Source: an uncultured Planctomycetia bacterium
GTDB lineage: Bacteria; Omnitrophota; Gorgyraeia; 2-02-FULL-51-18; JAGOUK01
DNA: 64,000 bases
Direction: 5' to 3'
Assembly (NCBI GenBank): GCA_964430735.1
Contig: CAYSFB010000007.1
Location: 62,179-126,178, forward strand
Under the pieces are notes generated by a model. That model was given only the letters and a program-made list of their open reading frames with translations, did no database searches and had not been told where the DNA came from. The translations under genes and the position numbers were made by a program. Of the stretch, positions 15,776 through 35,632 are shown piece by piece. How positions within the stretch are numbered: position 1 is the stretch's first letter; every line of letters starts with the position of its first letter.

Positions 15776-16665
15776 AGCTGCCGCAGCCCGCGGAAGCTTT
15801 TTTGACGCATCTGGACCGCGACAAAAACTACTCCGCCCACACCCGTTTGAATTACCGCATCGACCTGCGAGATTTTTTCGCTTTTCTCGGCGACGCGCCG
15901 CCGGAGAGCGCGGACCGGCTCCGGATGCGGTCGTATCTGGCGCACGCCGCCGGAAAGGGGTATGCCAAGCGGACGCTCGCGCGCAAGCTGGCGACGCTCC
16001 GGTCCTTCTACCGTTATTTTGTCCGTGAGGGCCGGATGGCCAAGAACCCCATGTCCGCGATCCGCAGTCCCAAGCTCGAAAAAAAGCTCCCGTCCTTTCT
16101 GAGCGAAAAAGAAATCGACCGCCTGCTCTCCTTCGAAACGAAGGACTTGTCGGGACATCGCGACCGGGCGCTTCTCGAGACGCTGTATTCGACCGGGTGC
16201 CGCGTGTCGGAGCTCGTCGCTCTGGACGAGCGCGACGTGGACACGATCGGCGCGATGATCCGGGTGCTGGGCAAGGGCCGCAAGGAACGCCTGTGTCCGA
16301 TGGGCAGCCGCGCGCTCTCGGCGGTCCGCGAATATCTGGAGGCGCGTTCCCGTGACCCGCGTCTGGCCGGCCGCCGCGGCCCGCTTTTTCTCAACCATTC
16401 GCCGCACGCGCGCGGTTCGCGCCTCACGGCCCGTTCGGTCCGCCGCATCCTGACGCAACGCGTCGAGGAAATGAGCGTCCGCGCCAGGATCTCGCCGCAC
16501 GCGCTGCGGCACTCGTTCGCGACCCACCTTCTGAACCGCGGCGCCGACCTGCGCTCGGTGCAGGAGTTGCTCGGCCATTCGAGCATCTCGACGACGGCGA
16601 TTTACACGCACGTCAGCTCCGAGCGCCTCAAGCAGGTTTACGAAAAGGCTCATCCCCGCGCATGA
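15772..16665 (+). CDS. xerC: tyrosine site-specific recombinase XerC/XerD family
   Basis: The GTG start overlaps the topA stop. The catalytic motifs are [23 protein letters not shown]. Confidence 0.8.
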
Positions 16666-17936
16666 CCTTCCTCTACAACGTCCTGCTGTTCCTGTACGGA
16701 TTGGCGGTGCTGCCCGTGTTGGCTGCGAAGGGCAAGCTGCGCGACGGGTTCCGCGAGCGCCGGGGACATCTCTCCAAAGAAAATGCCGCGCGCCTCGAAG
16801 GCAGGCGGACGGTCTGGGTTCATGCGGTGAGCGTGGGCGAAGCCCGGCTTGCCATCCAATGGATCGAGCGCCTCAGGCGGAAGGAACCCTCGGTCGTCGC
16901 GGTGCTGACGACGACGACGGCGTCCGCCCAGAAGATCGCGCGGGAAGCGGCCTGCAGCGACGTTGTGGTGACCTATTGCCCCTTCGACTTCAGCTGGATG
17001 ATGGGACGTTTGATCGACGCCGTTCACCCGTCGGCGATCGTGATCCTGGAGACCGAAGTCTGGCCCAACCTTCTGCGCCAGGCGGAGCGGCGGGGGATTC
17101 CCGTAATCCTGATCAATGCGCGGCTTTCCGATAAGGCCTATCCCGTTTACCTGCGCTGGAAATTTTTCGTGCGGCCGGCTTTTGAGCGGATCACGCTCTG
17201 CCTCACTCAAAACGCCGAGCACGCCCGCCGATTCTGCGAAATCGGCGTTCCGCCTGACCGGGTGCGGGTCACCGGTAACATGAAATTCGATCTCGAGGCG
17301 CCTAAAGTCACCGAAACCGTGCGGCTGGCCATGACAGTGTTCCGCGCCGATTCCAAGTCGCTGCTTTTGGCCGCGTCGACACATCCCGGGGAAGAGGAAC
17401 AGCTCGTCAGTGTGTTCGAGGCCGCGCGGGTGCATATTCCGGGGCTCAAGCTCGCGCTGGCGCCGCGCCATCTGGAGCGTCTCGCTGAAGTCGAAGAAAT
17501 CATCCGCCGAAGAGGCCTCAAGTGCGCTAAAATATCGGACTTGGAGCGGCATTATGCGTCGAATGTGGACGTGCTCCTAGTGGACGCTTGGGGTATTCTG
17601 AACCAGCTCTACGCGCTCTCGGACCTTGTGTTCGTGGGCGGAAGTCTCGTGCCGGTCGGCGGTCACAACCTGGCCGAACCGGCCGTCGCCGGTTGTCCGG
17701 TGCTGTACGGACCCTGGATGCAGAACTTCAAGGACATGGACGAGGAGTTCCGGGCGGCCCGCGCGGGCGTCCGGGTCGCAGACGCGCGGGAGCTCGAAGC
17801 CCGCGTGATCGAACTTTTTCAGGATCCCGGAGCGCGCCGGCAGCTGGCCGAACGTTCCCGGGCGGTCGTCGCCGCGAACGCCGGAGCGACCGATCTTAAC
17901 CTAAAGGAAATTTTGACATGCTCATCAAAACGCTGA
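16662..17936 (+). CDS. waaA: 3-deoxy-D-manno-octulosonic acid (Kdo) transferase
   Basis: 424 aa with the [18 protein letters not shown] motif of GT30 KdtA. It joins xerC through an ATGA overlap. Confidence 0.85.
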
Positions 17937-18901
17937 TGCGCCCCTTGCTCGGCTTCGGAGAAAAGCTCTACCGTCAGGGTCTTGAGCGCGACAAGAAGCG
18001 CGCCGGCGCCGCCAAGCGCCTCGACGCGCGCGTGATCTCGGTCGGTAATCTGACTTGGGGCGGAACCGGCAAAACGCCGCTGGTGATGTTCCTGGCCCGG
18101 AGCTTGGCGGAGGCGGGGCAAAAAGTCGCCGTCCTGACCCGCGGATACGGCAACGACGAATGCAAGGAACTTAAAGACCGTCTTCCGGGAATCCCGGTTC
18201 TCGTGGGCAAGGACCGGTACGCCACCGGACAGGAAGCCATTCAGAAGCACGGTGCCAAATGGATTCTGCTCGACGACGGGTTCCAGGTCTGGGATCTGCA
18301 GCGCGACCACGACATCGTGACCGTCAACGCCACCCAGCCCTTCGGCAACGGCCGGCTCATCCCGGCCGGCAATCTGCGCGAGCCCGTGGAAGCCCTTGCG
18401 CGCGCATCCACATTCGTGCTCACACAGTCCTTCCTGGGCCGCCACAACACCGCGCTCATCCGTCAGAAGCTCCGCGAGGTGAATCCCAAGGCGCCGGTGT
18501 TCGAGGCGGACCATCACCCGATCGCGTTTCTGGATTTCCGCAACAACCGTCCGTTGCCGCTCGACATGGTGCGCGACCAGCGGGTCGCGATCCTTTCCGG
18601 TATCGAGGACCCGATGTCGTTCGAGAACACGCTCTCGCGCCTCGGCGCCAAGATCGTGTACGCCGCCCGCTACCGGGACCACCACGCGTTCACGCCGGGC
18701 GACCTGAAGCAGGTCTTTGACGCCTGCAACGAGTGCAAGGTCCGGTACCTCGTGACCACCGAAAAAGATTCCTACCGCCTCGCGAACCTCATCACCGACG
18801 ACCGGCAGCCGACCCGGGTGCTGATGCTCCGGATCGAGATCCGCATGGACGACGAGGACGCCTTTCTCGAGCGATGCCTCTCAGCCGCCGCCAACCGCTA
18901 G
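17918..18901 (+). CDS. lpxK: tetraacyldisaccharide 4'-kinase
   Basis: It carries the P-loop [16 protein letters not shown]. It overlaps waaA by 19 nt. Confidence 0.85.
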
Positions 18902-20838
18902 GCCGGCATTTCGCCGACACCGTACTGCTGGCCGCGCTCCGTTTTCTGCGGCTTCTGCTGCTGCCCTGGCCGATGAGCGTCCGGATCCGCTTCGGCGGAT
19001 GGGCCGGATGGGCGGCCGGCCGCGTTTCCAAGCGCCGCCGTCTGGCGCTCAATAACCTCAAGCGCGCCTTCGCCGGCTCCGGCCGCACCCGCCGCGATCT
19101 CGAGCGAATCCTGGACGATTCCCACCGCGACCTCGGCCGCTCCCTGGTCGAATTCCTGATGAGCCCGTCGATCGATGCAAAGTATTTTGAAACCCATGTG
19201 GAAGTGGAGGGTTCGGAACGTTTGGATGCGCTCACAGCGTCTGGTAAAGGCGCCGTGCTGCTCACGGGCCATATCGGCAACTGGGAATTTTTGAACCTGA
19301 TGGCCGGCGTCCGAGGATATCCGCTGGCCGTTTTGGCCAAGGTTCAGAAGCTCGCGAAGACCGACGCCTGGCTGAACCGCCTGCGCACCCAGCGCGGAGC
19401 AAAAGTCGTGCTGCGCGGCATGGACGTGCGTCAGGTGTATCGGACGCTGGAAGGCGGCGGCCTGGCCGGCATTTTGGCCGATCAAGACGGCGGAAGCGGC
19501 GGCATTTACGCCCCGCTCTTCGGCCGGCAGTCATCCTACCCGCGCGGCGTCGCGCGTTTTTCTTACAAGACGGGCGCTCCGGCGCTTCCTGTGTTTGCCG
19601 TGCGGACGTCGCTGGACCGCCATCGGATCCGCATCGGTGATCCTGTCCGTCCGGCCGCAGGTGAGGCGGAGGACGCATATGAGCAGCGGGTCGTCGCGGA
19701 GTTTTCTTCTCAGCTGGAAGCCATGGTGCGTCAGTATCCGTCTCAGTGGATTTGGGCGCATCGGCGGTGGAAGTCGAGCCCGGACCGGGATATCGCGGTC
19801 CTGGACGACGGACGCAAGGGGCACACGCATCAAGCGCTCGCCGTCGCGGCGCAGGTGGCCGATCGCCGCGCCGGGCATCCTGGATGCAGAGAGACGAGGA
19901 CGGTGCCCGTCGCGTACCGATCATCCTTTGCACGAGCCGTTTTGACCATCTTCGGCATTCTGACCCGCGGACGCCTTTGGGGAGGCATGCGCTGGCTTCG
20001 CTGGGCGCTCACCGACGCGAGTTACGGAGCCCTGTCGGCGGTGCCCGCCGACGTCGTGATATCCTGCGGCAGCTCGACCGAAGCGGTGAACCTGATTCTT
20101 TCGCGGGATTGCGGAGCGCGGTCCTGCTACATCCACAAGCCGCAATTCGGCCGGCGCTTTTTTTCGGCCGTCCTCGTTCCGGGGCATGACCGCGCGGCCG
20201 GATCCAATGTCCTCCAGACGCGGGGGGCGTTGAGTTTTGTGAATCCTGGACGGATGGGGGAGTTGCGCGAACGCGCGCGCGCGGAAGCGCGGATCCCGGC
20301 AGGCGTACGGGCGGCGGCGCTTCTGGTCGGCGGCCCGTCGAAGCATGCCCCCTGGGATCCGGACGCGCTCGAAAAGATATTTTTTGCCTTGCGGGAATTC
20401 AGCCGGGAGCATAAGCTTTATTTGCTTGTTACGACCTCGCGGCGCACGGATCCGGCCGTCGAATCGGCCGTCGAACGGCTTTTCGTCGGTGAAGCCCTGT
20501 GTCCGGTGCTGGTGATGCCGAACCGCTCCAACCCCAGGCTCGCGTACGAGGGGATTCTGGCCGCCGCGGACCTGATCCTGGTGACGGCCGACTCTGTTTC
20601 GATGGTGTCGGAGGCGGTTTCGACCGGCAAGCCGGTCGGGTTGGTCGTCCCGGGTCGTACCTCCGCGGATGGGGCCGGAAAGTTTTTTCGTTTCATGTCA
20701 GATCTTGAGCGCGAAGGCTCAGTGACGCCGGTCAGCCTCGAGAATTTAAACGCGTTTTTGACCCGCGGATCCGTTGATCCGCACACCCGCCAGGCCGGCG
20801 ATGCGATCGCTTTGGCCGCGGACCTGCTCGCAAGATAA
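18874..20838 (+). CDS. fusion protein: N-terminal LpxL/HtrB-type lipid A late acyltransferase plus C-terminal ELM1/DUF1022-like domain (654 aa)
   Basis: This is one uninterrupted frame. The N-terminal half has the LpxL motifs (TGHIGNWEF, H-x4-E). The C-terminal half resembles ELM1-family proteins often encoded in LPS core loci. Its start overlaps lpxK by 28 nt. Confidence 0.7.
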   Translation: MPLSRRQPLGRHFADTVLLAALRFLRLLLLPWPMSVRIRFGGWAGWAAGRVSKRRRLALNNLKRAFAGSGRTRRDLERILDDSHRDLGRSLVEFLMSPSIDAKYFETHVEVEGSERLDALTASGKGAVLLTGHIGNWEFLNLMAGVRGYPLAVLAKVQKLAKTDAWLNRLRTQRGAKVVLRGMDVRQVYRTLEGGGLAGILADQDGGSGGIYAPLFGRQSSYPRGVARFSYKTGAPALPVFAVRTSLDRHRIRIGDPVRPAAGEAEDAYEQRVVAEFSSQLEAMVRQYPSQWIWAHRRWKSSPDRDIAVLDDGRKGHTHQALAVAAQVADRRAGHPGCRETRTVPVAYRSSFARAVLTIFGILTRGRLWGGMRWLRWALTDASYGALSAVPADVVISCGSSTEAVNLILSRDCGARSCYIHKPQFGRRFFSAVLVPGHDRAAGSNVLQTRGALSFVNPGRMGELRERARAEARIPAGVRAAALLVGGPSKHAPWDPDALEKIFFALREFSREHKLYLLVTTSRRTDPAVESAVERLFVGEALCPVLVMPNRSNPRLAYEGILAAADLILVTADSVSMVSEAVSTGKPVGLVVPGRTSADGAGKFFRFMSDLEREGSVTPVSLENLNAFLTRGSVDPHTRQAGDAIALAADLLAR

Positions 20839-20855
20839 AGGATGACTGTCCCAGC

Positions 20856-23006
20856 ATGAACATTCTTCAGATCGTGCCGGAGCTGCGCTCCGGCGGCGTC
20901 GAACGCGGAACCGTGGACTTCGCCAAATACCTGCTCAAGCAGGGCCACGGCTCTCTGGTGGTTTCCGCCGGCGGCGCGCTGGTCGCGGATCTCGAGGCGG
21001 CCGGCGTCCGCCACGTCACGCTGCCGGTTCATAAAAAATCGCTGTTCAGTATCTGGCGCCAGGTCGGCGTCCTGGCGGAGCTTCTGAAAAAGGAAAATAT
21101 CGACCTCGTCCACGCGCGCAGCCGCGTGCCGGCGTGGATCGCTTTTTTTGCGTGCCGCAAAGCCGGCATCCCGATGGTCACCACCTGTCACGGCGTGTAC
21201 AGCACGCATGGATTCAGCCGCATCATGGGTTGGGGGAAGTATGTGATCGTCATCAGCCACGCCGTCAGCCGGCACATGAAAGAAAACTTCAACGTTCCGC
21301 ATCACCGCATCCGCCTCATCCACCGCGGCGTCAATTTGTCCGAGTTCGGTCTGGAAGCGTCCGGCCCCGCGGCTCCCGCGGCTCCGGCCCCTTCCGAAAA
21401 AATCATCGGCATCGTCGGCCGCGTCACCCCGATCAAGGGCCACCGCGTGATGCTCAAGGCGATGGCGCGCGTCGCGCGCGTGTATCCGGACGCCAAGCTC
21501 TGGGTGGTGGGTGATTCACCCCGTCCGCGCTACATGGACGAACTCAAGCTCATGGTGCGCAAGCTCGAGCTTCAGAAGAACGTGGAATTTCTGGGCACGC
21601 GCCAGGATATTCCGGAACTGATGCGCCGGATGAGTCTCCTGGCCGCCCCGGCTGTGGGGGAAGAGGCCTTCGGCCGCGTCCTGATCGAAGCGGGCGCCTG
21701 CGGCGTGCCGGTCATCGCCAGCCGCATTGGCGGCATCGTCGACGTGGTGCGCTCCGGCACGGATGGCATCCTGGTCCCGGCGGGCGACGCGTCCGCGCTG
21801 GCCGAGAACATCATCAGCGTGCTCAAGGAGCCGGAGTACGGCCGCCGTCTAGCGGAGAGCCTGCGCCGCCGCGTCCGTGATGAGTTCAGCGACAAGACGA
21901 TGTTCGAAAAAACCATCGGCGTGTACCGCGAGACGCTTGAACGCAAAAAAATTCTGGTGATCAAGCTCAGCGCGCTCGGCGACGTCATTCTGAGCACGCC
22001 GTCGTTCCGGGCGATCCGCAAGCGTTATCCCCAGGCCCGGATTGTCGCGCTGGTCGAGCGCGCGGCGTATCCGGCCCTCAAGGCCTGCGCGTACGTCGAC
22101 GATGTCCTGTCGTTCGAAAAATTCGACAAAAAGGACGTCGCGTCCATCGTCCGGCTGGGGCGGCTTCTGTCCCGGGAGCAGTTCGACGTGTGTGTCGACC
22201 TCCAGAACAACCGGCTCTCGCATCTTCTGTCCTATCTTTCGGGCGCTCACACGCGGGTGGGGTACGCCAACCGCCGGCTCGACCTTTTTCTCAACCGCCC
22301 GGTCAAGGATCTGCGGCCGGTGGTCGGCCCGGTCGAGCACCAGTTCCAGCTGCTCGAAAACCTGGGGATCGAACATCCGGACACGCGGCCCGAACTTTCG
22401 GCCGACCCGGTCGACGAGGACGCGGTGGGCAAATTCCTGCGCGAAAACTGGTTGGGGGAAAATCAGACCCTGGTCGGCATCAACCCCGGATCCAGCCCGC
22501 TGTGGAAAACCAAACAGTGGCCCCAGGAGTACTTCGTCGAGCTTTGTGACGCGCTCTCGCGCGAAAACGTCCGCGTCGTGATCACCGGAACGAAGGATGA
22601 TTTGCCGGCGGCCGAGGCGATCGCGCGCCAGACGCGCACCCGCCCCATCGTCGCGGCCGGCCGCACCACCATCGGCGAGCTCATCGCGCTGGTCCGTCGG
22701 TGTCGTGTGTTTGTCACGTCCGACTCGGCGCCGATGCACATCGCCACCGCCGTCGGCACGCCCGTGGTCGCGCTCTTTGGTCCCACTGATCCGCGCCGCC
22801 ACGTCGCTCCCGGCCGCGCTCCGATTTCGGTCCTCAACAAGGAAGTGAAGTGCAGCCCATGTTATCTTAAAAAGTGCCCGATCGGCCTCATCTGCATGAA
22901 GCAGATCCTGCCGACCGAGGTCTTTGACCGCGTTCTGGCCTTCCTGCGCCCGGAAGAGGGGAACGCCCGCGCCGTCGAAGAGACGCCGGTCACCGCCGGC
23001 TTTTGA
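20856..23006 (+). CDS. bifunctional glycosyltransferase: N-terminal GT4 (RfaG-like) fused to C-terminal GT9 (heptosyltransferase-like)
   Basis: The GT4 part is residues 1-370 and includes an EAFGRV-type E-x7-E region. The GT9 part starts at ILVIKLSALGDVILSTP and includes ..SDSAPMHIATAVGTP. Confidence 0.75.
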   Translation: MNILQIVPELRSGGVERGTVDFAKYLLKQGHGSLVVSAGGALVADLEAAGVRHVTLPVHKKSLFSIWRQVGVLAELLKKENIDLVHARSRVPAWIAFFACRKAGIPMVTTCHGVYSTHGFSRIMGWGKYVIVISHAVSRHMKENFNVPHHRIRLIHRGVNLSEFGLEASGPAAPAAPAPSEKIIGIVGRVTPIKGHRVMLKAMARVARVYPDAKLWVVGDSPRPRYMDELKLMVRKLELQKNVEFLGTRQDIPELMRRMSLLAAPAVGEEAFGRVLIEAGACGVPVIASRIGGIVDVVRSGTDGILVPAGDASALAENIISVLKEPEYGRRLAESLRRRVRDEFSDKTMFEKTIGVYRETLERKKILVIKLSALGDVILSTPSFRAIRKRYPQARIVALVERAAYPALKACAYVDDVLSFEKFDKKDVASIVRLGRLLSREQFDVCVDLQNNRLSHLLSYLSGAHTRVGYANRRLDLFLNRPVKDLRPVVGPVEHQFQLLENLGIEHPDTRPELSADPVDEDAVGKFLRENWLGENQTLVGINPGSSPLWKTKQWPQEYFVELCDALSRENVRVVITGTKDDLPAAEAIARQTRTRPIVAAGRTTIGELIALVRRCRVFVTSDSAPMHIATAVGTPVVALFGPTDPRRHVAPGRAPISVLNKEVKCSPCYLKKCPIGLICMKQILPTEVFDRVLAFLRPEEGNARAVEETPVTAGF

Positions 23007-23028
23007 TCCGCATTCTCCTGTATTCCGC

Positions 23029-24162
23029 ATGAAAATCCTGATCCTCGCCAATCACGCCCGACGCGGCGGGATCACGTCGTACGTTTCTGTTTTGGCCCGT
23101 GAACTCGTGCGGCGCGGCCACCGGGTCCTGGTCGTGACCGGCGGCGGCGAAACGGCGCCGCAGTTCGAGGCGGTCGGCGCCGAGCACCGCACCCTTTTTC
23201 TTGATACGAGCTCCGAGCTCAATCCGCGCTTGTGGGGATCCGCTGCCGCTTTGCGCGGGTGGATCGACCGGGAGGGGTGGCAGATCGTTCACGCGCAAAC
23301 CCGGGTCGCCCAGACGGTCGCGGCGATCGCGCTGCGCGGACGGGACGTTCCGCGCGTCACGACCTGTCACGGATTTTTTAAAACCCGCTTTTTCAGAAAA
23401 CTGCTGCCGCTTTGGGGGGATCGTGTGATCGCGATCAGCCGGGCGGTCGAAAAGCACCTGCTGCGCGATTGGGCGCTGGCCCCGAAGCGTACGGCGTATG
23501 TTCCGCACGGTGTCGAACGGTTGTATGCCGACGAGGAGCTTTTGCGGCTGCGGGAGGAAGCCCGCCGCGAACTCAATATTTTTTCCGGTTCCGTCCTCGC
23601 CGGGGCGCTGGGCCGCCTTTCGCCGGTCAAGGGGTATCACGTACTGATTGAAGCGATGGCGCTTTTGAAGGACGTGCCGGTGGAACTGGTGCTGGTCGGC
23701 GACGGACCTGAAGCCCCGCGGCTCGACGAGTCCATCCGCGCGCTGGGCGTCGCGGCGCGCGTCCGGCGGATTCCGGCGATCGCGAATCACCATGCTATAC
23801 TGCATGCGTTCGACATTTTCTGCGCTCCGTCGCTCCAGGAAGGTTTGGGATTGGCGGCGATGGATGCCATGGCGCGGGGTACGTGCGTCATCGCTTCGAA
23901 TGTCGGCGGTTTGCCGGACCTCATCCGCGACGGTGAAACCGGGCGCCTCGTGCCCGCTGGCGACGCGGCGGCGCTGGCCGCGGCGATTCGCGGGCTGGCA
24001 TCCGACGCTGCCGCGCGGACGCGGCTGGGAAGCGCCGGCCGGCGCTTTGTCGAACGGGAATTCACCCTGAACCGGATGATCGAGGGGACTGAGCGCGTTT
24101 ACGCGGAGCTGCTGAGCGCCGCCGAAGTCCCCACCTCTCACAAGGATGCGCATGGCGTTTAA
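23029..24162 (+). CDS. GT4-family glycosyltransferase
   Basis: It starts MKILILANHARRGGITSYV.. and its C-terminal half has the EGLGLAAMDAMARG (E-x7-E) motif. Confidence 0.8.
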   Translation: MKILILANHARRGGITSYVSVLARELVRRGHRVLVVTGGGETAPQFEAVGAEHRTLFLDTSSELNPRLWGSAAALRGWIDREGWQIVHAQTRVAQTVAAIALRGRDVPRVTTCHGFFKTRFFRKLLPLWGDRVIAISRAVEKHLLRDWALAPKRTAYVPHGVERLYADEELLRLREEARRELNIFSGSVLAGALGRLSPVKGYHVLIEAMALLKDVPVELVLVGDGPEAPRLDESIRALGVAARVRRIPAIANHHAILHAFDIFCAPSLQEGLGLAAMDAMARGTCVIASNVGGLPDLIRDGETGRLVPAGDAAALAAAIRGLASDAAARTRLGSAGRRFVEREFTLNRMIEGTERVYAELLSAAEVPTSHKDAHGV

Positions 24163-25997: not shown

Positions 25998-28003
25998 GTA
26001 CGACCGACCGGCGGGTCGTCCGGCAGGCGCTGTTCGTGAGTTTTTCCAATCTCGGAGACGCGATCCTTTCGCTGCCTGCGCTGGACGCGCTGATCAAGCG
26101 TTATCCTGAGGCGAGCGTCGACGTGGTGTGCGGCACCGGAGCCGCGTCGGTTTTTCAGGGGGATGCGCGCATCCGCACGGTCTACGTGGACATCAAGCGG
26201 CCGCTTGCCCGGCGGCTGGAACTTTTTCGCACAATCCATTCGGTCCGGTACGACTGCGTCGTGGACCTCCGCAATTCGCTCTTCCGGTATTTGGGCAAAC
26301 GGGGGAGTTCCGGATGGAACGGCGGCTTCGTTCATATGCGGGACCGCCATCTCAACGCCGTCCGCTCGCTGGGCGCCAACGTCGAACCATACCGTTTTAC
26401 TTCCAACCGGTCGATGGATCCGGGCGCGCTCTCGGGTCGGACCGCGGTGATCGCTCCCGGCTCCAAGTCGACGACCAAAGAATGGATGGCTGACCGGTTC
26501 GCACGGCTGGCCGACCGGCTGATCCGCGAGGACGGTTTGGACGTGATCTGGATCGGAGACGAGCGCGAACGGGGGAGGATTGACGAGATCCGCGCCCAGA
26601 TGACCGAGCCGAGCGCCAATTTTTCCGGGAAGCTGAGCTGGCCTGAAACGTTGGAGCTGATCAGGGGTTGTGCCGTCGTGATCACGAACGATTCCGCACC
26701 CCTCCACGCCGCCGACCAGATCGGCAAAAAAACGGTCGCTATTTTCGGGCCCACGGATCCCGCGCGTTACGGTCCTCAGCGCAGTCCGTCCGGGGTCGTC
26801 TTTAAAGGAATCGCCTGTTCCCCCTGCGGCGAAGCCCAGTGCCGTTACGGCCACCGGCAATGTCTCACCGACATCACGGTAGAGGACGTGTATCGAACCG
26901 CCCGGCAGCTTCTGGAGGACACTCCGGAGCGCGAGAGTCCCAACGTTCTCGTCGTCCGTCTGGACCGTATCGGAGATGTGATGCTGTCGTTTCCGGCGGT
27001 CGCGGCCATCCGTCAGAAGTTTCCGAGCGCCCGCATCACCTGGCTCGTCCGTCCGGCCGCGCAGGAATTGGCCGAACGGTGTCCCGATTCCGATGAAGTG
27101 CTCGTCTACGATTATTCGCGCTCCGGCCGTCATCGCGGCGCGTTGGGCGCGCTCGCGCTGGTGCGCCAGTTGGCAAGGCGGCGATTCGACATGGCGTTTT
27201 TGCTGCATCCTACGCTGAGGACGCATCTGACCGCGGCGTTGTCCGGAATCCCGTACCGCGCGGGGTACGACGTTCGGGGCGGCTGGCTTCTGACACACCG
27301 GATCGCCGATCTGCGGCGCGACGGCTACCAGCACGAAAGCCGCTACGCGCAGGACGTCGTCCGCGCGCTCAATGTCCCTCCGACGGACGCCGTTCCCCGG
27401 CTGATGCTGTATGCCGAAGACACGATTGCCGCGTCTGCGCTGCTCCGCGCTTCGGGATTGGATCCGGAAAAGCCCTACGCGGTCCTGCATGCGGCCGCTT
27501 CCTGCAAATCCAAATGCTGGCCCGCCGATTCTTTCGCAGCGCTCGCCAACCGTTTGCGGTCGGAGCGGGGGCTTCAAATCGTCCTGGCGGGCGACCCCTC
27601 GAGCGCGCCGGTCAACGCGGAGCTGGCTGCGCGGATCCCGGGCGCGGCGGATCTCTCGGGCCGGACGCCGCTCATGACGCTGGCGGCGTTGTGCCGCTCG
27701 TCGGCCATCGTGGTTTCGAACGATTCCGGCCCCGCTCACGTGGCCGCCGCAGCCGATGCGCGCGTACTCAGCATCTTCGGCCGCAAGGAAAAGGGGTTGT
27801 CCGAACGGCGCTGGAGCCCTCTCGGCTCCAAGACGCGCGTCCTGCGCAAGGATGTCGGATGCGTCGTGTGTCTGGCGGACCGTTGCCCGATCGGTTTTGA
27901 GTGTCTTCGCGCGCTCGGTGCGGATGAAGTTTTTCAGGCAGCTTCCACTCTGCTTTCCTCAACGTCTCCCGACGCTTCGCCCCTCTCCCGGCAACCCGCT
28001 TAA
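25994..28003 (+). CDS. tandem double-GT9 glycosyltransferase (two heptosyltransferase-like domains in one 669-aa protein)
   Basis: Domain 1 carries ALFVSFSNLGDAILSLPAL..NDSAPLHAA. Domain 2 carries VLVVRLDRIGDVMLSFPAV..NDSGPAHVAAA. It joins the upstream gene through an ATGA overlap. Confidence 0.75.
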   Translation: MSTTDRRVVRQALFVSFSNLGDAILSLPALDALIKRYPEASVDVVCGTGAASVFQGDARIRTVYVDIKRPLARRLELFRTIHSVRYDCVVDLRNSLFRYLGKRGSSGWNGGFVHMRDRHLNAVRSLGANVEPYRFTSNRSMDPGALSGRTAVIAPGSKSTTKEWMADRFARLADRLIREDGLDVIWIGDERERGRIDEIRAQMTEPSANFSGKLSWPETLELIRGCAVVITNDSAPLHAADQIGKKTVAIFGPTDPARYGPQRSPSGVVFKGIACSPCGEAQCRYGHRQCLTDITVEDVYRTARQLLEDTPERESPNVLVVRLDRIGDVMLSFPAVAAIRQKFPSARITWLVRPAAQELAERCPDSDEVLVYDYSRSGRHRGALGALALVRQLARRRFDMAFLLHPTLRTHLTAALSGIPYRAGYDVRGGWLLTHRIADLRRDGYQHESRYAQDVVRALNVPPTDAVPRLMLYAEDTIAASALLRASGLDPEKPYAVLHAAASCKSKCWPADSFAALANRLRSERGLQIVLAGDPSSAPVNAELAARIPGAADLSGRTPLMTLAALCRSSAIVVSNDSGPAHVAAAADARVLSIFGRKEKGLSERRWSPLGSKTRVLRKDVGCVVCLADRCPIGFECLRALGADEVFQAASTLLSSTSPDASPLSRQPA

Positions 28004-28081
28004 GTCGTCAACTGCGTTGCCAAAACTCTCCGAATCGGCGAGAATAACCCCTTGTTTCGGAACCCCCGGAGGAGCCCCCGC

Positions 28082-28330
28082 ATGCGCCAGTTATTGATTT
28101 GGATCCTAGGATCCGTCACCCTGTTCGGTTCCGTTTCCGCTTCGGCGATGGGCCGTTCCGAGGATCCGCGCGACGCCGTCCAGCCCGTCGGCACGGACGC
28201 CGATCCGTCGATCCGTCAAAACGACGAGCGCCTGAGGCAGCTTTTGTCACAGCCCGGCGGAGCGGATCCGAAGGCTCCGGAAGACCGGATGCCGCTTCCG
28301 GCCGCCGCTGATCCCGCGGACCACCGGTAA
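28082..28330 (+). CDS. small secreted Pro/Asp-rich hypothetical protein (82 aa)
   Basis: A GGAGG RBS precedes it and the product has a signal peptide (MRQLLIWILGSVTLFGSVSASA). Confidence 0.45.
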   Translation: MRQLLIWILGSVTLFGSVSASAMGRSEDPRDAVQPVGTDADPSIRQNDERLRQLLSQPGGADPKAPEDRMPLPAAADPADHR

Positions 28331-28359
28331 TCGTTTCGCGCATTCTTCAGAGGAGTTTT

Positions 28360-29379
28360 ATGGACAAGATCCAATCGATGGAATATTCGCGCCTGAAGCA
28401 GGTGGTGAATTCGTTCAACCGCGTGCGCGTCCTCGTGATCGGGGATTTGATTCTGGACGAGTTTATCTGGGGCAAGGTGTCCCGCATATCTCCTGAGGCG
28501 CCGATCCCGGTTGTTTGGGTGAAGTCCGAAAGTTTTGTCCCCGGCGGTGCATGCAATGTCGCGAACAACCTTCGCTCGCTCGGCGCCAAGGCCGACGTGA
28601 TCGGCGTGATCGGCACTGAGGGGCGGGGCCGCATGCTCATGGAGCTGCTGCAGCAGAAGGGGATCGGCACGTCCGGCATCCTCAAAGACGCCTCGCGCCC
28701 AACAACGCTCAAGACCCGGGTAGTTGCGCATCACCAGCAGGTGGTCCGCATCGACCGGGAGGAAATAACCCCGCTTTCCAAGGATATTCAACGCCGCATC
28801 CTCGCGGACGTGCGCAAGCGGCTCAAGCATTTTGACGCCGTGTGCGTCGAAGACTACGGCAAAGGCGTGATCACGCCGGAGCTCGTCCAGGAGATCGTCC
28901 GCCTGGCCCGCCGTCAGGGAAAAATCATCACGGTCGATCCCAAGGAGAGCCACCTGTCGTATTACCGCGGCGTCAGCTGCATCACGCCGAACAACCACGA
29001 AGCCTCCACGCTCTCCAAAATCGTGATCAAAGACGACGCGTCGCTCAAGCGCGCGGGGCAAAAACTTCTGCGCGTCCTCGCGTGCGAAAACGTGCTCATC
29101 ACGCTCGGCGAAAACGGGATGTGTCTCTTTCAAAAGGGTCTCAAACCTGTTAAAATTCCGACTTTGGCGCAGGATGTGTTCGACGTTTCGGGCGCGGGCG
29201 ACACGGTGATCGGAACCTACACCCTGGCGCTCGGATCCAAGGCCGCTCCGATCGAAGCGGCGCATCTGGCCAACTGCGCGGCCGGCATCGTGGTCGGCAA
29301 AGTCGGTACCGCGACCGTCACGCAGAGCGAACTTTTGGCCCGTGTCCGTCAACTGTTGTCCGTCACCTCGGAAGCCTAA
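28360..29379 (+). CDS. hldA: D-glycero-beta-D-manno-heptose-7-phosphate kinase (RfaE domain I / HldA-type; no adenylyltransferase domain)
   Basis: It carries the PfkB-family motifs GDLILDEFIWGKVSRISPEAPIPVV and ..DVSGAGDTV. At 339 aa it is kinase-only length. Confidence 0.8.
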   Translation: MDKIQSMEYSRLKQVVNSFNRVRVLVIGDLILDEFIWGKVSRISPEAPIPVVWVKSESFVPGGACNVANNLRSLGAKADVIGVIGTEGRGRMLMELLQQKGIGTSGILKDASRPTTLKTRVVAHHQQVVRIDREEITPLSKDIQRRILADVRKRLKHFDAVCVEDYGKGVITPELVQEIVRLARRQGKIITVDPKESHLSYYRGVSCITPNNHEASTLSKIVIKDDASLKRAGQKLLRVLACENVLITLGENGMCLFQKGLKPVKIPTLAQDVFDVSGAGDTVIGTYTLALGSKAAPIEAAHLANCAAGIVVGKVGTATVTQSELLARVRQLLSVTSEA

Positions 29380-29394
29380 AAGCACACAACCCAC

Positions 29395-30129
29395 ATGCAA
29401 ACCATCGGCGTCATTCCCGCACGGCTCGGATCCACGCGATTGGCCCGCAAGGTCCTGATGGACCTCGGCGGGAAGCCCGTGATTCAGCACGTGTACGAGC
29501 GCACCCGCAAGGCGCGCCTCCTCGATGACGTGATCGTGGCCTGCGACGACGACGAGATCGTATCCGTGGTCCGCGGCTTCGGCGGCAAGGCCGTTCTCAC
29601 CTCCAAACACCACACGACCGGCACCGACCGCCTCGCCGAAGTCGTCAACGACCTCGACGTGCAGACGATCGTGAACATCCAGGGCGACGAGCCCTTCGTG
29701 AATCCGTTGACCATCGACGACCTCGTGGGCCTGATGCAGAAGGAAGCCGGCACGGTGATGGCCACCGTCGTCAAAAAGTCCACGAGCTTCGAGGACTTCA
29801 AGAAGCCCGACGTCGTCAAGGCCGTCCTGGACGACGAAGGCCACGTGCTTTATTTTTCTCGGATGCCGATCCCGACTTTTTTGAAGGAAGGGGAATCGTT
29901 CTACAAGCACATCGGCCTGTACGCCTTCACCAAGGAATTTTTGTTCACGTTTAAAAAAATGCCCCCCTCCTTCCTGGAGCGGCACGAACGCCTCGAGCAG
30001 CTGCGCGCGCTGGAAAACGGCTACCGCATTCGGGCGATCGAAACCAAATTCGAAACCATCGGCATCGACACTCCTGAAGATCTGGAGCGGGCCCGCGCCG
30101 TTCTGGCCAGCCAGGAAGCCGCCGGTTAA
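29395..30129 (+). CDS. kdsB: 3-deoxy-manno-octulosonate cytidylyltransferase (CMP-Kdo synthetase)
   Basis: It carries the IPARLGSTRLARKVL motif and is 244 aa. Confidence 0.9.
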   Translation: MQTIGVIPARLGSTRLARKVLMDLGGKPVIQHVYERTRKARLLDDVIVACDDDEIVSVVRGFGGKAVLTSKHHTTGTDRLAEVVNDLDVQTIVNIQGDEPFVNPLTIDDLVGLMQKEAGTVMATVVKKSTSFEDFKKPDVVKAVLDDEGHVLYFSRMPIPTFLKEGESFYKHIGLYAFTKEFLFTFKKMPPSFLERHERLEQLRALENGYRIRAIETKFETIGIDTPEDLERARAVLASQEAAG

Positions 30130-30147
30130 CCGGCCAGACAGGATCCC

Positions 30148-31788
30148 ATGAGTCCAGAAAAATCCACCCCCAAATATTTGTTTGTCACCGGCGGCGTCGT
30201 TTCCAGTCTCGGCAAGGGAGTTGCGTCCGCGTCGCTCGGCAAGCTGCTCGAAGCCCGCGGACTCAAGGTGACGATCATCAAGTGCGACCCTTATCTCAAC
30301 GTCGACCCGGGCACGATGAACCCCTACCAGCACGGAGAAGTCTACGTCACGCAGGACGGAGCGGAAACGGATCTCGACCTCGGACATTACGAGCGTTTCC
30401 TGTCCGGGCCGATCACCAGCGCGAACAACATCACGGCCGGCAAGGTGTACCACTCGGTGATTCAGAAAGAGCGCCGCGGCGAATACCTCGGCGCGACCGT
30501 TCAGGTCATCCCGCACGTGACCGATGAAATCAAGGGTTTCCTCCGACGCATCGCGGAAACGAACAAGGGGCTCGACGTCGTCATCTGTGAGATCGGCGGA
30601 ACCGTCGGAGACATCGAATCGCTCCCGTTCCTGGAAGCGATCCGCCAGTTCCGCCAGGAGATCGGCCGCGAAAACGCCATCGACATCCACCTCACGCTGA
30701 TTCCGTACATCCGCACAGCGGACGAGCTCAAGACCAAGCCCACCCAGCATTCCGTCGGCAAAATGCGCGAGATCGGCATCCAGCCCGACATCCTGCTGTG
30801 CCGCACCGAACAACCGTTGCCGCTGGAGCTGCGCAAAAAAATCTCTCTCTTTTGCAACGTGCCGACCGAACAGGTGATCCCGATCCCCGACGTGGACGAC
30901 ATCTACAAGGTTCCTCTGGTGCTCGAGAGCGAGGGGCTGGACCGCATCGTTGCTCGTCTGGTCGGCCTCAAATGTTCCGACGGGGATCTGACCGAATGGA
31001 AGACCCGCGTCGTCGCCAAGGTCGAGCGTCCGCTGCACCGCATTCAGATTGCGGTGGTCGGCAAGTACACGGAACTGCAGGACGCTTACAAATCGATTTA
31101 TGAGGCGCTCAAGCACGGCGGCATCGCCAACGACACGGCCATCGATATCAAGAAGATCGATTCAGGAACGCTGCAGGATTGCAATCCGCATGAGCTGCTT
31201 CGCGATATGGACGGCATCCTGATCCCGGGAGGGTTCGGCGACCGCGGTTTGGAGGGCAAGTTCAAAGCCGCGCAATACGCGCGCGAGAACAAGGTCCCTT
31301 ATTTCGGTATCTGCCTGGGGATGCAGTGCGCGGTGATTGAATTCGCCCGCAATGCCTGCAACATGGCCGGCGCGAATACGGCGGAAACGAATCCCAAGGC
31401 TGCGTTTCCGGTCATCCATATGATGGAGGACCAAAAGACGGTGACTGACAAGGGCGGCACGATGCGCCTCGGCTCCTACCCCTGCAAGGTGAAGTCGGGT
31501 TCGCTCGCGCACAAGGCGTATCACAAGGACCAGGTTCAGGAGCGTCACCGTCACCGCTACGAATTCAACAACAAGTACAAGGTCAAGATGGAGCAGCAGG
31601 GCATGGTCATCAGCGGCGTGAGCCCCAACGGCCGTCTCGTCGAGATTATCGAACTGGAGGCGTCGCTCCACCCCTGGTTTGTCGGTTGCCAGTTCCATCC
31701 GGAATTTCAGTCCAAGCCGGACCGGCCGCACCCGCTGTTCCGCGACTTCGTCAAGGCCGCGCTCAAGAAGCGGAGCAAGGTCAAATGA
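30148..31788 (+). CDS. pyrG: CTP synthase
   Basis: 546 aa with the [10 protein letters not shown] motif and a C-terminal GATase domain (GICLGMQ). Confidence 0.95.
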
Positions 31789-32684
31789 CCCGCGCCGCCG
31801 CTGCCAAGAAGCCGGCTTCGTCCGCCGGTCCGGCCAAGGCCGAGCCGGTGCGCCTGGGCAAGCTCCGCATCGGTCCCGGCTGCCCGCTCACGATCATCGC
31901 CGGCCCCTGTGTGATCGAGTCCGAAGCGTCCGCGCTCCGCCACGCGAAACATCTGAAAAAACTCGCCGACAAGCTGGGCGTCCAATTCGTCTACAAGTCC
32001 AGCTATGACAAAGCCAACCGCACGTCCGCTTCCGCCTTTCGCGGATCGGGCATGGAGTCGGGCCTGGAGATCCTGGCCCGCGTGAAGCGCGAACTCGGCG
32101 TTCCGGTCACAAGCGATGTTCATTCGCCGCAGGAGGCCGAAGCCGCCGCCGGCGTCGTGGACATCCTGCAGATCCCGGCATTTTTGTGCCGCCAGACGGA
32201 CCTTCTGATCGCTGCCGGCCGCACCGGCAACGTGGTCAATATCAAAAAGGGGCAGTTCATGGCCCCCGAAGACATGCGTTACGCGGTGGAAAAAGTCCGC
32301 TCCACCGGCAACCGCCGTATTTTTCTCACCGAACGGGGGACTTCGTTCGGCTACCGGACGCTCGTGAACGACTTCCGCGCGATCCCGATCATGCGCGACC
32401 TCGGCGTGCCCGTCATTTTCGACGCGACCCATTCGGTCCAGCGGCCCGGAGGCCTGGGTCACGCGACCGGGGGAGACCGGCACTTCGCTCCGATGCTGGC
32501 ATGCGCGGCGACCGTCGCGGGCGCGGACGGAATTTTTATGGAAGTACACGAAGATCCGGACAACGCCCTTTCGGACGGTCCCAATTCGCTGCCGCTCGAG
32601 TGGCTGCCGGAACTGTGGAAAAAGCTTCAGATGCTCAGCGGAGTTTCCTGCCGTGTCGATCGCGACCGCGCAAGCCGTTCTTAA
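31785..32684 (+). CDS. kdsA: 2-dehydro-3-deoxyphosphooctonate aldolase (Kdo-8-P synthase)
   Basis: The ATG overlaps the pyrG TGA as ATGA. The DAHP/KDO8P synthase motifs are GPCVIES and KSSYDKANR. Confidence 0.9.
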
Positions 32685-33618
32685 GCACGAAGCCGAGTCC
32701 ATCCTCCGGATGGCCAAACGGCTCGACGCCGGCTTTGACCGTGCGGTCAAGCTGATCTATTCGTCCAAATATCCCGTCATCCTTGTCGGCATGGGCAAGC
32801 CCGGCTTCATCGCCGAAAAAATCTCCGCAAGTTTCGCCTCCACCGGCACTCCGTCGTTCACCCTTCATCCGGCCGACGCGCTGCACGGCGATATCGGACG
32901 CGTGCCGGCCGGTGCGGTGCTCATCCTGCTGTCGAACAGCGGCGAAACGGAAGAGCTGGTCCGCCTGGTGCCGTTGCTCAAGGCCGTCCACGCCAAGTTG
33001 ATCGTGATGACCGGCAACCTCAAGTCCTCGATGGCGCGTTCCGCCGACATCCTCCTCGACACGTCGGTCGTTTCGGAGGCGGAGCCGCTCAACCTCGCTC
33101 CGACCGCGTCCACGACCTGCATGCTCGCGATGGGCGATGCGCTCGCGATGGCGCTGGTCAAAAAGCGCCGTTTCAAGGAAAAAGACTTTGCGCTGCTGCA
33201 TCCGGGCGGCATGCTCGGCAAGCGCATGCGGCTGCGCGTCCGCGACGTGATGCGTTCGGGCGAGCGGAACCCCCGGGTGCGGCCCTCCATGGCGATCCGG
33301 GACGTGCTGCTCGAGATCACGACGGCCCGCGCCGGCAGCGCCACGATCGTGGATGCCAAGGGCAAATGCCTCGGGATCTTCACCGACGGTGACCTGCGCC
33401 GCCACTTCAAGGAATTGACCGCCCATCCGGATTCTCCCGTTTCCAAATACATGACCGCCAACCCCGTCACGATCAAGGAAGACCTGCTCGCGGTCCAGGC
33501 GCTCGAGCTCCTTCGCCGCCGCGCGATTGACGAACTGCCGGTTACGGACAAAGCCGGCCGTGTCCGCGGGCTCCTCGACGTGCAAGACCTGCTGGCACAA
33601 GGATTCATCACCTCATGA
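32653..33618 (+). CDS. kdsD: arabinose-5-phosphate isomerase (SIS + tandem CBS)
   Basis: It has a SIS domain ([25 protein letters not shown]) and two CBS domains. Its 5' end overlaps the kdsA 3' end by about 32 nt. Confidence 0.85.
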
Positions 33619-34145
33619 CAGACCTTCAGCTGGACGAACGCTTGAAGCGCATCAAGCTCGTCGCTACCGACCTCGACGGCGTGCTCACCAACGGAATCAT
33701 CTACTACGGCGATCACGGCGACGAGATCAAGGGCTTTCACATCCAGGACGGCCAGGGAATCGTGCTCGCGCAGCGGGCGAAGATCCGCACGGTGATCATC
33801 ACGGGCCGCAAGAGCAAGGTCAACGAGCGCCGCGCGCGCGACCTTCGGGTCGACCGCCTGATCCAGGACTGCCACGAAAAGGGCCGCGCCTTCGAAAAAG
33901 CCGTCGAGAAATACCGTCTCAAGCCGGAAGAAGCGGCCTATATCGGCGATGACCTGCTGGATTTGCCGCCGATGCGCAAGGCGGGATTGGCGGTCGCGGT
34001 CCGGAACGCCGTCGCCGAGGTCAAGTCCGCGGCCCATTACGTCACCGAACGTTCCGGCGGAGACGGCGCGGTCCGCGAAGTGATCGACATGATCCTGAAG
34101 TCGCAGGGGCTCTGGAGTTCCGTTACGGCCAAGGTCGGATCCTAA
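33615..34145 (+). CDS. kdsC: 3-deoxy-D-manno-octulosonate 8-phosphate phosphatase
   Basis: It has the HAD motif VATDLDGVLTNG and is 176 aa. Confidence 0.85.
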   Translation: MTDLQLDERLKRIKLVATDLDGVLTNGIIYYGDHGDEIKGFHIQDGQGIVLAQRAKIRTVIITGRKSKVNERRARDLRVDRLIQDCHEKGRAFEKAVEKYRLKPEEAAYIGDDLLDLPPMRKAGLAVAVRNAVAEVKSAAHYVTERSGGDGAVREVIDMILKSQGLWSSVTAKVGS

Positions 34146-34913
34146 GTGAAAAAATTTGTGGTCTGGGCCCTGCTCGCGTCAGCGGCAGCGGGCGTCTGGT
34201 GGATGATGAGCGTCCACCGTCCGGCGCGACCGGCTGTTTACGCGGAAGCGGACGGTGATCCCAAAGGCCAGGTGATCGAGCACTTCGAGCTCGAGGGTTT
34301 TGATGACGAGGGAAACGCCTCGTGGCGGCTGGTGGGGGATTCGGCGGTGGTGTCCAGCGCCACCGACGTCTTCATTGAGAAGGACGTCGTTTTGACGATG
34401 CTCGGCGGCGCGATCATCCGCTCCGACAAGGTGTTCTGGCAGAATTCAAAGACCCGTTTTGTCACGAGCCAGCCGGTCAAGGTGCTGCACCGCAATATCG
34501 AGGTCGAGGGCCGCGGCGCGATCGGCAAATTGAACCAGAAGAGCATCCAGATCAATCAGGATATCCGGATGCGGATCGAGCCCGACGGGACGCTCGTGAC
34601 CTGCCGGGGGCCGATGCGGATTTTACAGGGCGAAAGCCGCGTGACGCTGTATCATGACGTCACGATCCGGGACACCCGCGGGAATCTTGTCGCCGACCGG
34701 ATGGACGCGTTCTTCGATCCGGATACGAAAAAAATCGTGATGATCACCGCTTCCGGCAATGTCCGGATCACGCGCGGAGAAGACATCAGCGTCGCCGACA
34801 AGGCCATCTACGACACGCGCACCGGCTCCATCCGATTGGAAGGCATGCCCGAGATCAGCATCCGCGACACCAACGGCCTGGAACCGGGCAAATTACCGCT
34901 GAGGACTTCATGA
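34146..34913 (+). CDS. lptC: LptC-like membrane-anchored LPS transport protein with an extended LptA/OstA-N-like periplasmic beta-jellyroll (255 aa)
   Basis: It begins with a GTG start and has an N-terminal TM ([21 protein letters not shown]). The C-terminal part has the LptA-like pattern ..[19 protein letters not shown]... Its position between kdsC and lptB fits the call. Confidence 0.6.
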
Positions 34914-35632
34914 GCCTGCTGGACGTTCAGTTCGTCAAAAAGAAATACGGGGAGCGCGAAGTCGTCCGCGGCGTCAACATCACCGTGAACCGCGGCGAAA
35001 TCGTAGGCCTTCTCGGTCCCAACGGCGCCGGCAAAACCACCACGTTCTACATGACCGTCGGCCTTGTCCCGGCCGACTCCGGCCGCATCCTCTTTAACGA
35101 CCGCGACGTCACCAAGATGCCGATGTACAAACGCGCCCGCTACGGCATGGGCTACCTGTCGCAGGAACCCTCGATTTTCCGCAATCTGACCGTCGCTGAG
35201 AACATCCTCGCCATCCTGGAAGCGTTGCGCATCCCGTACCGGGAGCGCAAACGCCGGCTCGAAGAGCTGCTCCATGAGCTGCGCATCGAAAAGCTCCGCA
35301 ATTCCAAAGCCGTCACCCTTTCGGGCGGGGAGCGCCGGCGCCTGGAAATCACGCGCGCGCTGGTGGCCCATCCGATGTGCATCCTGCTCGACGAGCCGTT
35401 TTCGGGGATCGACCCGATCGCCGTATCCGAGTGCCAGGAGCTCATCAAGGACCTGAAGCGTCGGGGGATCGGCATCCTGCTCACCGACCACAATGTCCGC
35501 GAAACCCTCTCGATCACCGACCGCGCCTACATCATGGCCGAAGGCCGTATTCTGGTCTCCGGCACCAAGGACCAGCTCCTCTCCTCCGAAGAAGCCCGCA
35601 AGCTTTACCTCGGCGAAAAATTCTCCATGTAG
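34910..35632 (+). CDS. lptB: LPS export ABC transporter ATP-binding protein
   Basis: It has the Walker A motif GPNGAGKTT, the signature [10 protein letters not shown] and a Walker B motif ILLDEPF. Confidence 0.9.

Follow-up and report, generated by a model that had tools for sequence, protein, structure and literature searches.

Two-domain enzymes in a putative lipopolysaccharide locus shared across the candidate phylum Omnitrophota

The region considered here lies in a stretch of 64,000 nucleotides (hereafter the window) of contig CAYSFB010000007.1, from the assembly GCA_964430735.1 of an uncultured bacterium that is titled Planctomycetia and placed in Omnitrophota by GTDB. Between positions 16662 and 35632 on the plus strand, 17 consecutive open reading frames (ORFs), annotated with Pfam and NCBIfam, form what is very probably a conserved, operon-like lipopolysaccharide (LPS) locus of Omnitrophota, a candidate phylum of the Planctomycetes-Verrucomicrobia-Chlamydiae (PVC) group. 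The original prediction, made from the sequence, had the coordinates and gene identities right: every gene that it named is matched by a Pfam or NCBIfam profile, the GT9 regions included, and most named genes score above NCBIfam's own cut-off, the exceptions being waaA and the LpxL domain. Its count of nineteen genes is to be corrected to 17 ORFs, the number in its own list. It had also described the cluster as unusually rich in domain fusions; for its lineage the cluster is not unusual, since the gene order is conserved through the phylum and the cluster is a normal Omnitrophota LPS locus.

Three proteins of the locus fuse activities that are separate in E. coli, as had been proposed. In the LpxL-ELM1 protein (654 aa, 18874..20838), a single ORF encodes a PF03279 domain (about residues 27-300) followed by a PF06258 domain (about residues 316-621). 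The GT4-GT9 protein (716 aa, 20856..23006) consists of a GT4 domain at residues 1-360 (PF13439, PF00534 and PF13692) and a GT9 domain at residues 361-716 (PF01075). The GT9-GT9 tandem (669 aa, 25994..28003) contains two PF01075 stretches, with an N half of about residues 1-316 and a C half of about residues 317-669. Each domain junction was examined for ORF continuity across 26 related Omnitrophota loci (compared loci are labelled L001, L002 and so on). LpxL-ELM1 is a single ORF in 25 of the 26, and GT4-GT9 in all 23 loci holding both halves. GT9-GT9 is more variable: 10 loci encode it as a single ORF, 7 as a pair of adjacent ORFs, and 2 have just the C-type domain. The sole exception to the LpxL-ELM1 fusion is L036 (single-cell genome AM-311-K22), in which a stand-alone ELM1 gene (10001-11041) directly follows lpxK and no LpxL domain is present at that position.

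The same proteins recur in independent data. An independent Logan assembly contains identical gene calls of 654, 716 and 669 aa with the same boundaries, identical proteins occur in assemblies from runs SRR14271366, SRR14271373 and SRR14271365, and each of the three fusion proteins is matched exactly on an NCBI contig of 128 kb. Homology searches returned 26 two-domain homologs of LpxL-ELM1 (33-76% identical) and at least 120 full-length homologs each of GT4-GT9 (48-89%) and GT9-GT9 (34-85%). The named homologs all belong to Omnitrophota or Omnitrophica metagenome-assembled genomes (MAGs), with the exception of one 'Eisenbacteria' record. A search with the ELM1 domain alone and no filter gave 3435 cluster representatives; among the best 150 of these, about 100 have the LpxL-ELM1 architecture, with a length of 600-720 aa and an ELM1 domain that begins near residue 290-300. 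Invariant residues are found on both sides of the short linker between the two domains. It might be argued that the fusions arose by assembly error or frameshift, wrongly joining neighbouring genes, because the window derives from a metagenome assembly and the GT9 halves are separate ORFs in seven related loci, one of which (L018) resembles overlapping frames. The probability of this is negligible in view of the matching gene calls in the Logan assembly, the number of full-length homologs from many samples, the predominance of the fused architecture among the best 150 ELM1 cluster representatives, and the invariant residues flanking the linker. Continuity of the ORFs in relatives together with the independent assemblies excludes an assembly artefact for all three fusions; the comparative data refute a frameshift and show the fusions to be lineage-wide in Omnitrophota.

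The genomic context is equally conserved. A tblastn synteny map combined with precomputed gene calls gave a shared order whose 5' part is (aroC-aroK-dprA)-topA-xerC-waaA-lpxK-[LpxL-ELM1]-[GT4-GT9]-(GT4)-(CE4)-GT9-[GT9-GT9]. The 3' part is (DUF3108 and/or deoxyhypusine-synthase-like)-hldA-kdsB-(pyrG)-kdsA-kdsD-kdsC-lptC-lptB-(hpf)-tig-clpP. This order persists where the fusion proteins share only 27-68% identity with their counterparts in the window, down to loci at about 27-36%, and such sharing across the phylum implies that the locus is normal for Omnitrophota and no peculiarity of one genome. Variation is confined to a few slots. The CE4 gene is present in 11 and absent from 11 of 22 related loci and is thus an accessory gene of the locus; the second, stand-alone GT4 is absent from L002 and L010; and pyrG lies between kdsB and kdsA in the window, L002, L091 and the Nitrospirota locus L030, while it is absent from that position in L019, L022, L026 and L092. 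Beyond Omnitrophota, in Acidobacteriota, Nitrospirota and others, the fusion query was matched through its LpxL half only, and MAGs of Nitrospirota and Deltaproteobacteria (L028, L030, L034, L045, L050) carry unfused sub-blocks of the types waaA-lpxK-lpxL-GT9(-gmhB) and hldA-kdsB-pyrG-kdsA-kdsD-kdsC. The gene content is thus not exotic; what is distinctive is its concatenation into one block and the fusions. In the literature collection searched, nothing relevant was found on Omnitrophota LPS, GT9 fusions or LpxL-ELM1, nor any paper on the arrangement. Public records list the fusion proteins by automatically assigned names, 'lipopolysaccharide heptosyltransferase II' and 'KDO2-lipid IV(A) lauroyltransferase' among them. 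Five records titled 'uncultured Planctomycetia bacterium' (L010, L012, L015, L016 and L018), which are GTDB representatives, contain the full Omnitrophota-type cluster and synteny with all three fusions; their titles probably mislabel Omnitrophota MAGs.

The LpxL-ELM1 protein provides the most suggestive functional clue. Its LpxL domain has the PF03279 match, the HX4(D/E) catalytic dyad and an LpxM-like fold, and the HX4E motif is invariant among homologs. The ELM1 domain matches PF06258 with 175.4 bits against a cut-off of 27, over profile positions 2-279 of 304. In a confident structure model (predicted local distance difference test, pLDDT, 88.6), the folds match as expected, and the GT-B fold of the ELM1 half is confirmed. 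The only discussed bacterial protein of the ELM1 family is GtrOC1 of Acinetobacter baumannii, a predicted glycosyltransferase of the lipooligosaccharide (LOS) core (PMC4172580). GtrOC1 is the one gene common to all outer-core locus types and is predicted to form the first linkage from inner to outer core, and its knock-down phenotype clusters with those of lpt genes (PMC4172580, PMC10327509, PMC11975115). By analogy, this would fit a role of the ELM1 domain as a core glycosyltransferase. The near-universal fusion of ELM1 to LpxL in Omnitrophota offers a 'Rosetta stone' clue to the function of the family. It is tentatively proposed, as a possibility about which we remain more doubtful than confident, that the ELM1 family, which has been described as ancestral to the plant mitochondrial fission factor ELM1, works directly on Kdo-lipid A (Kdo, 3-deoxy-D-manno-oct-2-ulosonic acid) at the inner membrane, so that late acylation is coupled with the first glycosylation of the core beyond Kdo; the inner core would then be built by tethered enzyme pairs with substrate channelling, and might be started without a canonical heptosyltransferase I (HepI).

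The four GT9 domains put forward by the original prediction are GT9 by profile match, catalytic residues and fold, the fold having been modelled for the GT9-GT9 protein. They are referred to as GT9a (the GT9 half of GT4-GT9), GT9b (the stand-alone GT9, 355 aa, 24930..25997), and GT9cN and GT9cC (the tandem halves). PF01075 matches all of them, with 139 bits for GT4-GT9, 116 bits for GT9b and 196.6 bits over two stretches for GT9-GT9. The heptosyltransferase II (HepII) profile TIGR02195, with a cut-off of 134.6, is passed by GT9a (157.6 for the half alone) and GT9b (158.6); GT9-GT9 as a whole reaches 228 bits, its separate halves 111.5 and 109.8, both below the cut-off. BLAST scores of E. coli WaaC against the GT9 domains are all at most 45 bits, GT9b has WaaF as its best E. 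coli match (121 bits), and GT9a is nearest to WaaQ and WaaF. An attempt to distribute HepI, HepII and HepIII roles among the four domains by BLAST against WaaC, WaaF, WaaQ and WaaU and by TIGRFAM profiles gave no firm assignment, none of them being close to WaaC.

The catalytic residues are conserved in every case. Mutagenesis of HepI (WaaC) shows that D13, K192 and D261 matter (PMC5713226). Equivalents of these residues, whose positions were checked in the WaaC sequence of E. coli K-12, are found in all four GT9 domains on alignment with E. coli WaaC, WaaF and WaaQ, and across 46 homologs of GT9-GT9 they are either invariant or above 90% conservation in each half, the C-half lysine falling in the latter class. 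A confident AlphaFold model of GT9-GT9 (pLDDT 90.4; predicted TM-score, pTM, 0.90) retrieved as its top Foldseek matches WaaF (1psw, E 3.7e-19, TMt 0.83), the Veillonella GT9 protein (3tov, TMt 0.87) and WaaC (TMt 0.79). The occurrence of this pair both fused and as two adjacent genes suggests that the halves are independent enzymes rather than an enzyme with a dead scaffold, and both look like working enzymes. The stand-alone GT4 glycosyltransferase (377 aa, 23029..24162; PF00534 131 bits, PF13439 92 bits) is 33% identical to the GT4 half of GT4-GT9.

Each GT9 domain ends in a four-cysteine motif, C-x2-C-x4-C-x5-6-C, located within 22850-22960, 25880-25960, 26810-26870 and 27860-27920, which does not occur in E. 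coli WaaC, WaaF or WaaQ. Its cysteines are invariant in the 46 GT9-GT9 homologs. Structural matches include TibC, an iron-containing heptosyltransferase according to its PDB entry, and on the strength of the motif and this match a structural metal site is possible.

Heptose activation is represented in the window by the kinase alone, in agreement with the original prediction. HldA (28360..29379) scores 389.5 bits with TIGR02198 (cut-off 345) and shares 38% identity with the N-terminal half of HldE from E. coli. Pfam searches among the remaining ORFs were negative for gmhA, gmhB, hldC and hldD, whose absence had also been noted, and tblastn of the E. coli GmhA/GmhB/HldC/HldD-pathway proteins within the window at E<=1 found HldA only. 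The only other haloacid dehalogenase-type hydrolase, at 2760-3491, considered as a hidden GmhB, is ThrH (274 bits). Among the Omnitrophota loci, a single further gene of the heptose pathway was seen within the cluster, for a homolog of HldD (ADP-L-glycero-D-manno-heptose 6-epimerase) in L023 (MAG BS750m-G32), at 12859-13776 between GT9-GT9 and hldA, 36% identical to E. coli HldD.

The CE4 polysaccharide deacetylase (265 aa, 24152..24949) matches PF01522, the family of metal-dependent de-N-acetylases, with 98 bits against a cut-off of 23.1 and shows the motifs TFDD (residue 103), HTVHH (159) and FSYP (196). Its best NCBIfam matches, the PgaB N-domain and IcaB, are both below cut-off. A very basic N-terminus followed by a hydrophobic helix forms an N-terminal signal anchor which, under the positive-inside rule, would place the catalytic domain in the periplasm; CE4 is therefore probably a periplasmic enzyme and not one that assembles the core in the cytoplasm. 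As a hypothesis, the inner core that had been proposed for this organism, possibly heptose-rich and N-deacetylated, is plausible.

Several observations weigh against the reading of the block as an operon-like LPS locus working in the way proposed here. The best NCBIfam equivalog of WaaA (NF004388) scores 344.7 bits, below its cut-off of 438, and the LpxL domain falls below every NCBIfam LpxL equivalog cut-off. A search for a specific structural relative of the ELM1 domain gave generic GT-B matches only and no solved or characterised relative, and, according to PMC10327509, no bacterial function is known for PF06258. None of the GT9 domains reaches the HepI cut-off (TIGR02193). With E. coli queries, the flanks of the cluster, about 10 kb on each side, yielded no gmhA, gmhB or hldC in the 26 Omnitrophota loci, while the same search, as a positive control, found gmhB or hldC beside lpxL in loci from outside the phylum; with none of these genes in window or flanks, the supply of ADP-heptose has to be assumed. 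No LPS chemistry is known for any member of Omnitrophota. Finally, promoter-like sites (3 found, 2.9 expected) do not rise above shuffled expectation, and among the terminator-like sites (30 found, 20.8 +/- 4.4 expected), which are mostly intragenic, none stands out. It is thus from the spacing alone that a single operon is argued: intergenic distances in the block range from a 32-bp overlap to a 78-bp gap, and topA and xerC run into waaA with 4-bp overlaps each, the waaA start overlapping the xerC stop. The co-directionality of the block, to which attention had been drawn, is real and yet not specific to it, since all validated genes of the window lie on the plus strand.

Other readings concern the glycan that the transferases make. 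Some members of GT9 in the CAZy classification, for example Salmonella RfaK, use UDP-N-acetylglucosamine (UDP-GlcNAc). Some or all of the GT9 domains of the locus could likewise take another donor such as this one and not be heptosyltransferases; the core would then not be rich in heptose, and hldA would be left with a single step to serve. The missing gmhA, gmhB and hldC, seen against the gmhB and hldC genes near lpxL in other phyla, would agree with this, as would the sub-threshold HepII scores of the tandem halves, the lack of any domain at the HepI cut-off and a neighbouring deacetylase suited to GlcNAc transfer. We consider it unlikely, however, because hldA is an above-cut-off equivalog kept beside the GT9 genes throughout the phylum, an HldD homolog lies within the L023 cluster, K192 and D261, which contact ADP-heptose, are conserved in all four domains, and GT9a and GT9b exceed the HepII cut-off. 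The ELM1 domain, for its part, has a generic GT-B fold and as its bacterial point of reference a predicted core glycosyltransferase; that it is instead another nucleotide-sugar or phospho-transfer enzyme with this fold, 2-epimerase-like or TagF-like for example, seems distinctly unlikely.

A further proposal would have the GT4, CE4 and ELM1 part make a different envelope glycan, resembling poly-N-acetylglucosamine (PNAG) or another exopolysaccharide, that is merely embedded in the LPS locus. It draws on the best specific matches of CE4, which are PgaB and IcaB, on the strongly positive N-terminus of its anchor, which suggests a periplasmic catalytic domain (a topology deduced from sequence), and on the GT4 domains, which match exopolysaccharide GT4 families best. 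All of these matches are far below the family cut-offs, however, and GT4 is covalently joined to GT9 as ELM1 is to LpxL. The block also contains no polymerase, flippase or export gene for another glycan, and throughout the phylum it keeps a set order between the lipid A genes and the Kdo genes, so that a separate glycan is very unlikely.

The remaining genes of the block belong to well-known families. At its 5' end are waaA (16662..17936, 424 aa), encoding the Kdo transferase of family GT30 (PF04413, 198 bits), and lpxK (17918..18901, 327 aa), encoding tetraacyldisaccharide 4'-kinase (PF02606 231.6 bits; TIGR00682 162.8 against a cut-off of 91.95). Downstream of hldA lie kdsB for CMP-Kdo synthetase (29395..30129; TIGR00466 208 bits, cut-off 155), pyrG for CTP synthase (30148..31788; TIGR00337 810 bits, above cut-off), kdsA for Kdo-8-phosphate synthase (31785..32684; TIGR01362 372.5 bits, cut-off 314), kdsD for arabinose-5-phosphate isomerase (32653..33618; TIGR00393, KpsF/GutQ family, 296 against 203.7, with PF01380 (SIS) and PF00571 (CBS) domains) and kdsC for Kdo-8-phosphate phosphatase (33615..34145; TIGR01670 163.7 bits, cut-off 106.95). 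The block closes with lptC (34146..34913), whose 255-aa product has an N-terminal membrane anchor (TIGR04409 62.7 against 38; PF06835 at 48-145, PF03968 at 163-238), and lptB for the ATPase of the LPS exporter (34910..35632; TIGR04406 351.8 bits, cut-off 240). The CMP-Kdo and Lpt proteins, KdsD, KdsA, KdsC, KdsB, LptC and LptB, thus each exceed their NCBIfam cut-off.

With the gene identities taken from annotation and the order of steps and the substrates from the Raetz, Kdo, ADP-heptose and Lpt pathways, the following working may be envisaged. KdsD, KdsA, KdsC and KdsB would produce CMP-Kdo, for which the adjacent PyrG would give CTP. LpxK would phosphorylate the lipid A disaccharide to lipid IVA, WaaA would add Kdo, and the LpxL domain a secondary acyl chain, while the tethered GT-B domain of GtrOC1 type would transfer a sugar onto the same Kdo-lipid A acceptor at the inner membrane face. 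The four GT9 domains, with their intact catalytic residues, and the two GT4 domains would extend the inner core, with HldA as the kinase of the ADP-heptose pathway. In loci that have it, the membrane-anchored CE4 would remove the N-acetyl group from an amino sugar, probably on the periplasmic side and possibly after flipping, and LptC and LptB would hand the product over to the Lpt bridge for export. Each of the fusions, LpxL-ELM1, GT4-GT9 and GT9-GT9, would unite neighbouring genes whose products act on successive intermediates.

Comparison with known systems shows that all components come from known families and that the logic of the pathway is canonical. The waa (rfa) and kdsD-kdsC-lptC-lptA-lptB loci of E. 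coli share with the Omnitrophota locus WaaA (GT30), GT9 proteins with D13/K192/D261, GT4 (as WaaG), KdsD, KdsC, LptC and LptB, and the order kdsD-kdsC-lptC-...-lptB. In E. coli, however, the genes are spread over several loci and encode single-domain proteins, whereas Omnitrophota has lpxK, lpxL, kds, hldA and lpt genes in one block, three two-domain fusions and no separate lptA between lptC and lptB. Heptose activation shows the opposite relation: E. coli HldE is a fused kinase-adenylyltransferase and HldA of the window a kinase alone. The window also has no clear ortholog of WaaC (HepI). The sub-blocks of the Nitrospirota and Deltaproteobacteria MAGs, in which the second type may end in a further lpxL (hldA-kdsB-pyrG-kdsA-kdsD-kdsC-lpxL), are alike in content, and the Nitrospirota locus L050 has five GT9 genes, CE4 and GT4 after lpxL; unlike in Omnitrophota, all domains there are separate genes, no ELM1 adjoins lpxL, and gmhB or hldC is part of the cluster. 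None of the solved structures of related enzymes, LpxM (5KN7/5KNK), PatA (7OJT), WaaF (1PSW), WaaC (2H1F) and the Veillonella GT9 protein (3TOV), contains two catalytic modules. To our knowledge, Acinetobacter LOS is without heptose. In the outer-core locus of A. baumannii, the PF06258 protein GtrOC1, a predicted core glycosyltransferase, adjoins a polysaccharide deacetylase (Pda1/Pda2) and GT4-type transferases, as in Omnitrophota; it is not fused to LpxL, and according to the Pfam tables the locus has no GT9 gene (PMC4172580, PMC10327509).

Some features of the locus and its surroundings deserve separate mention. The protein described as LptC-like in the original prediction is a true LptC, extended at its C-terminus by a stretch that resembles LptA/OstA: an LptA/LptD_N-like segment at residues 163-238 follows the LptC domain. 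The LptC of L091, the closest relative, is also 255 aa long and that of L092 294 aa, while E. coli LptC has 191 aa. No separate lptA was found between lptC and lptB in the window, L091 or L092, and the protein could represent a lengthened LptC-LptA bridge element or a partly fused one.

Between GT9-GT9 and hldA lies a variable slot (28004-28360 in the window). In other Omnitrophota it is mostly occupied by a DUF3108 protein of about 280-315 aa, by a protein of about 310 aa whose deoxyhypusine-synthase-like matches are weak, or by both (L002 15989-16831; L010 17876-18823; L017 19260-21307; L092 12119-13048), and in L015 CorA and two CNNM/CBS transporters. In the window and its close relative it contains just a small ORF (28082..28330 in the window, 82 aa as called, possibly extending to 28052) with a signal-peptide-like product. 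This is the small secreted protein of the original prediction, 82-92 aa long. The ORF matched no Pfam or NCBIfam family and is only weakly conserved, an uncalled ORF of L091 being 50% identical to it over 56 aa, and its status as a gene is uncertain. No similarity supported its being a remnant of the DUF3108 protein that occupies the same slot elsewhere.

Downstream of lptB, a two-gene module precedes hpf (37489-37824) in the window, whereas in L091 hpf lies directly 3' of lptB. The first gene (35720-36331) encodes a protein of 203 aa that begins like a signal peptide and matches no family, the second (ORF 36117-37379) a LacI-family regulator. Just upstream, at 35681-35694, is a perfect 14-bp palindrome, TGTAAGCGCTTACA, that resembles an operator of LacI/GalR type and is a putative one, and GC drops to 0.574 over positions 36001-38000. 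The module (35633-37400) looks like a lineage-specific insertion. At the other end of the locus, the genome GCA_022072175.1 (L002 2609-4885) has a ThiS-like ubiquitin-fold domain fused to the N-terminus of topoisomerase I (758 aa), whereas in the organism of the window a ThiS-like ORF of 68 aa (L001 4624-4830) is separate and lies immediately upstream of topA (about 13497-15775); this is another fusion of adjacent genes within Omnitrophota. The rest of the window is of housekeeping character, with genes for branched-chain and aromatic amino-acid synthesis, dprA, topA, xerC, tig, clpP and serA, and further purA, cdsA, dxr, rseP, proS, nusA, infB and others.

These findings do not overturn the current understanding of LPS biosynthesis. 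They provide a phylum-wide picture of how LPS synthesis is organised in Omnitrophota, a large uncultivated group with many very small members, in which nearly all genes for late lipid A, Kdo, inner-core and early export functions stand in one co-directional block and neighbours are joined as two-domain proteins. The coexistence of split and fused GT9-GT9 pairs is a natural experiment on whether core assembly changes in order or efficiency upon fusion. As a lead, LpxL-ELM1 is the most useful: it is a compact construct for biochemical work and may link a family of no known bacterial function to a defined substrate, Kdo-lipid A.

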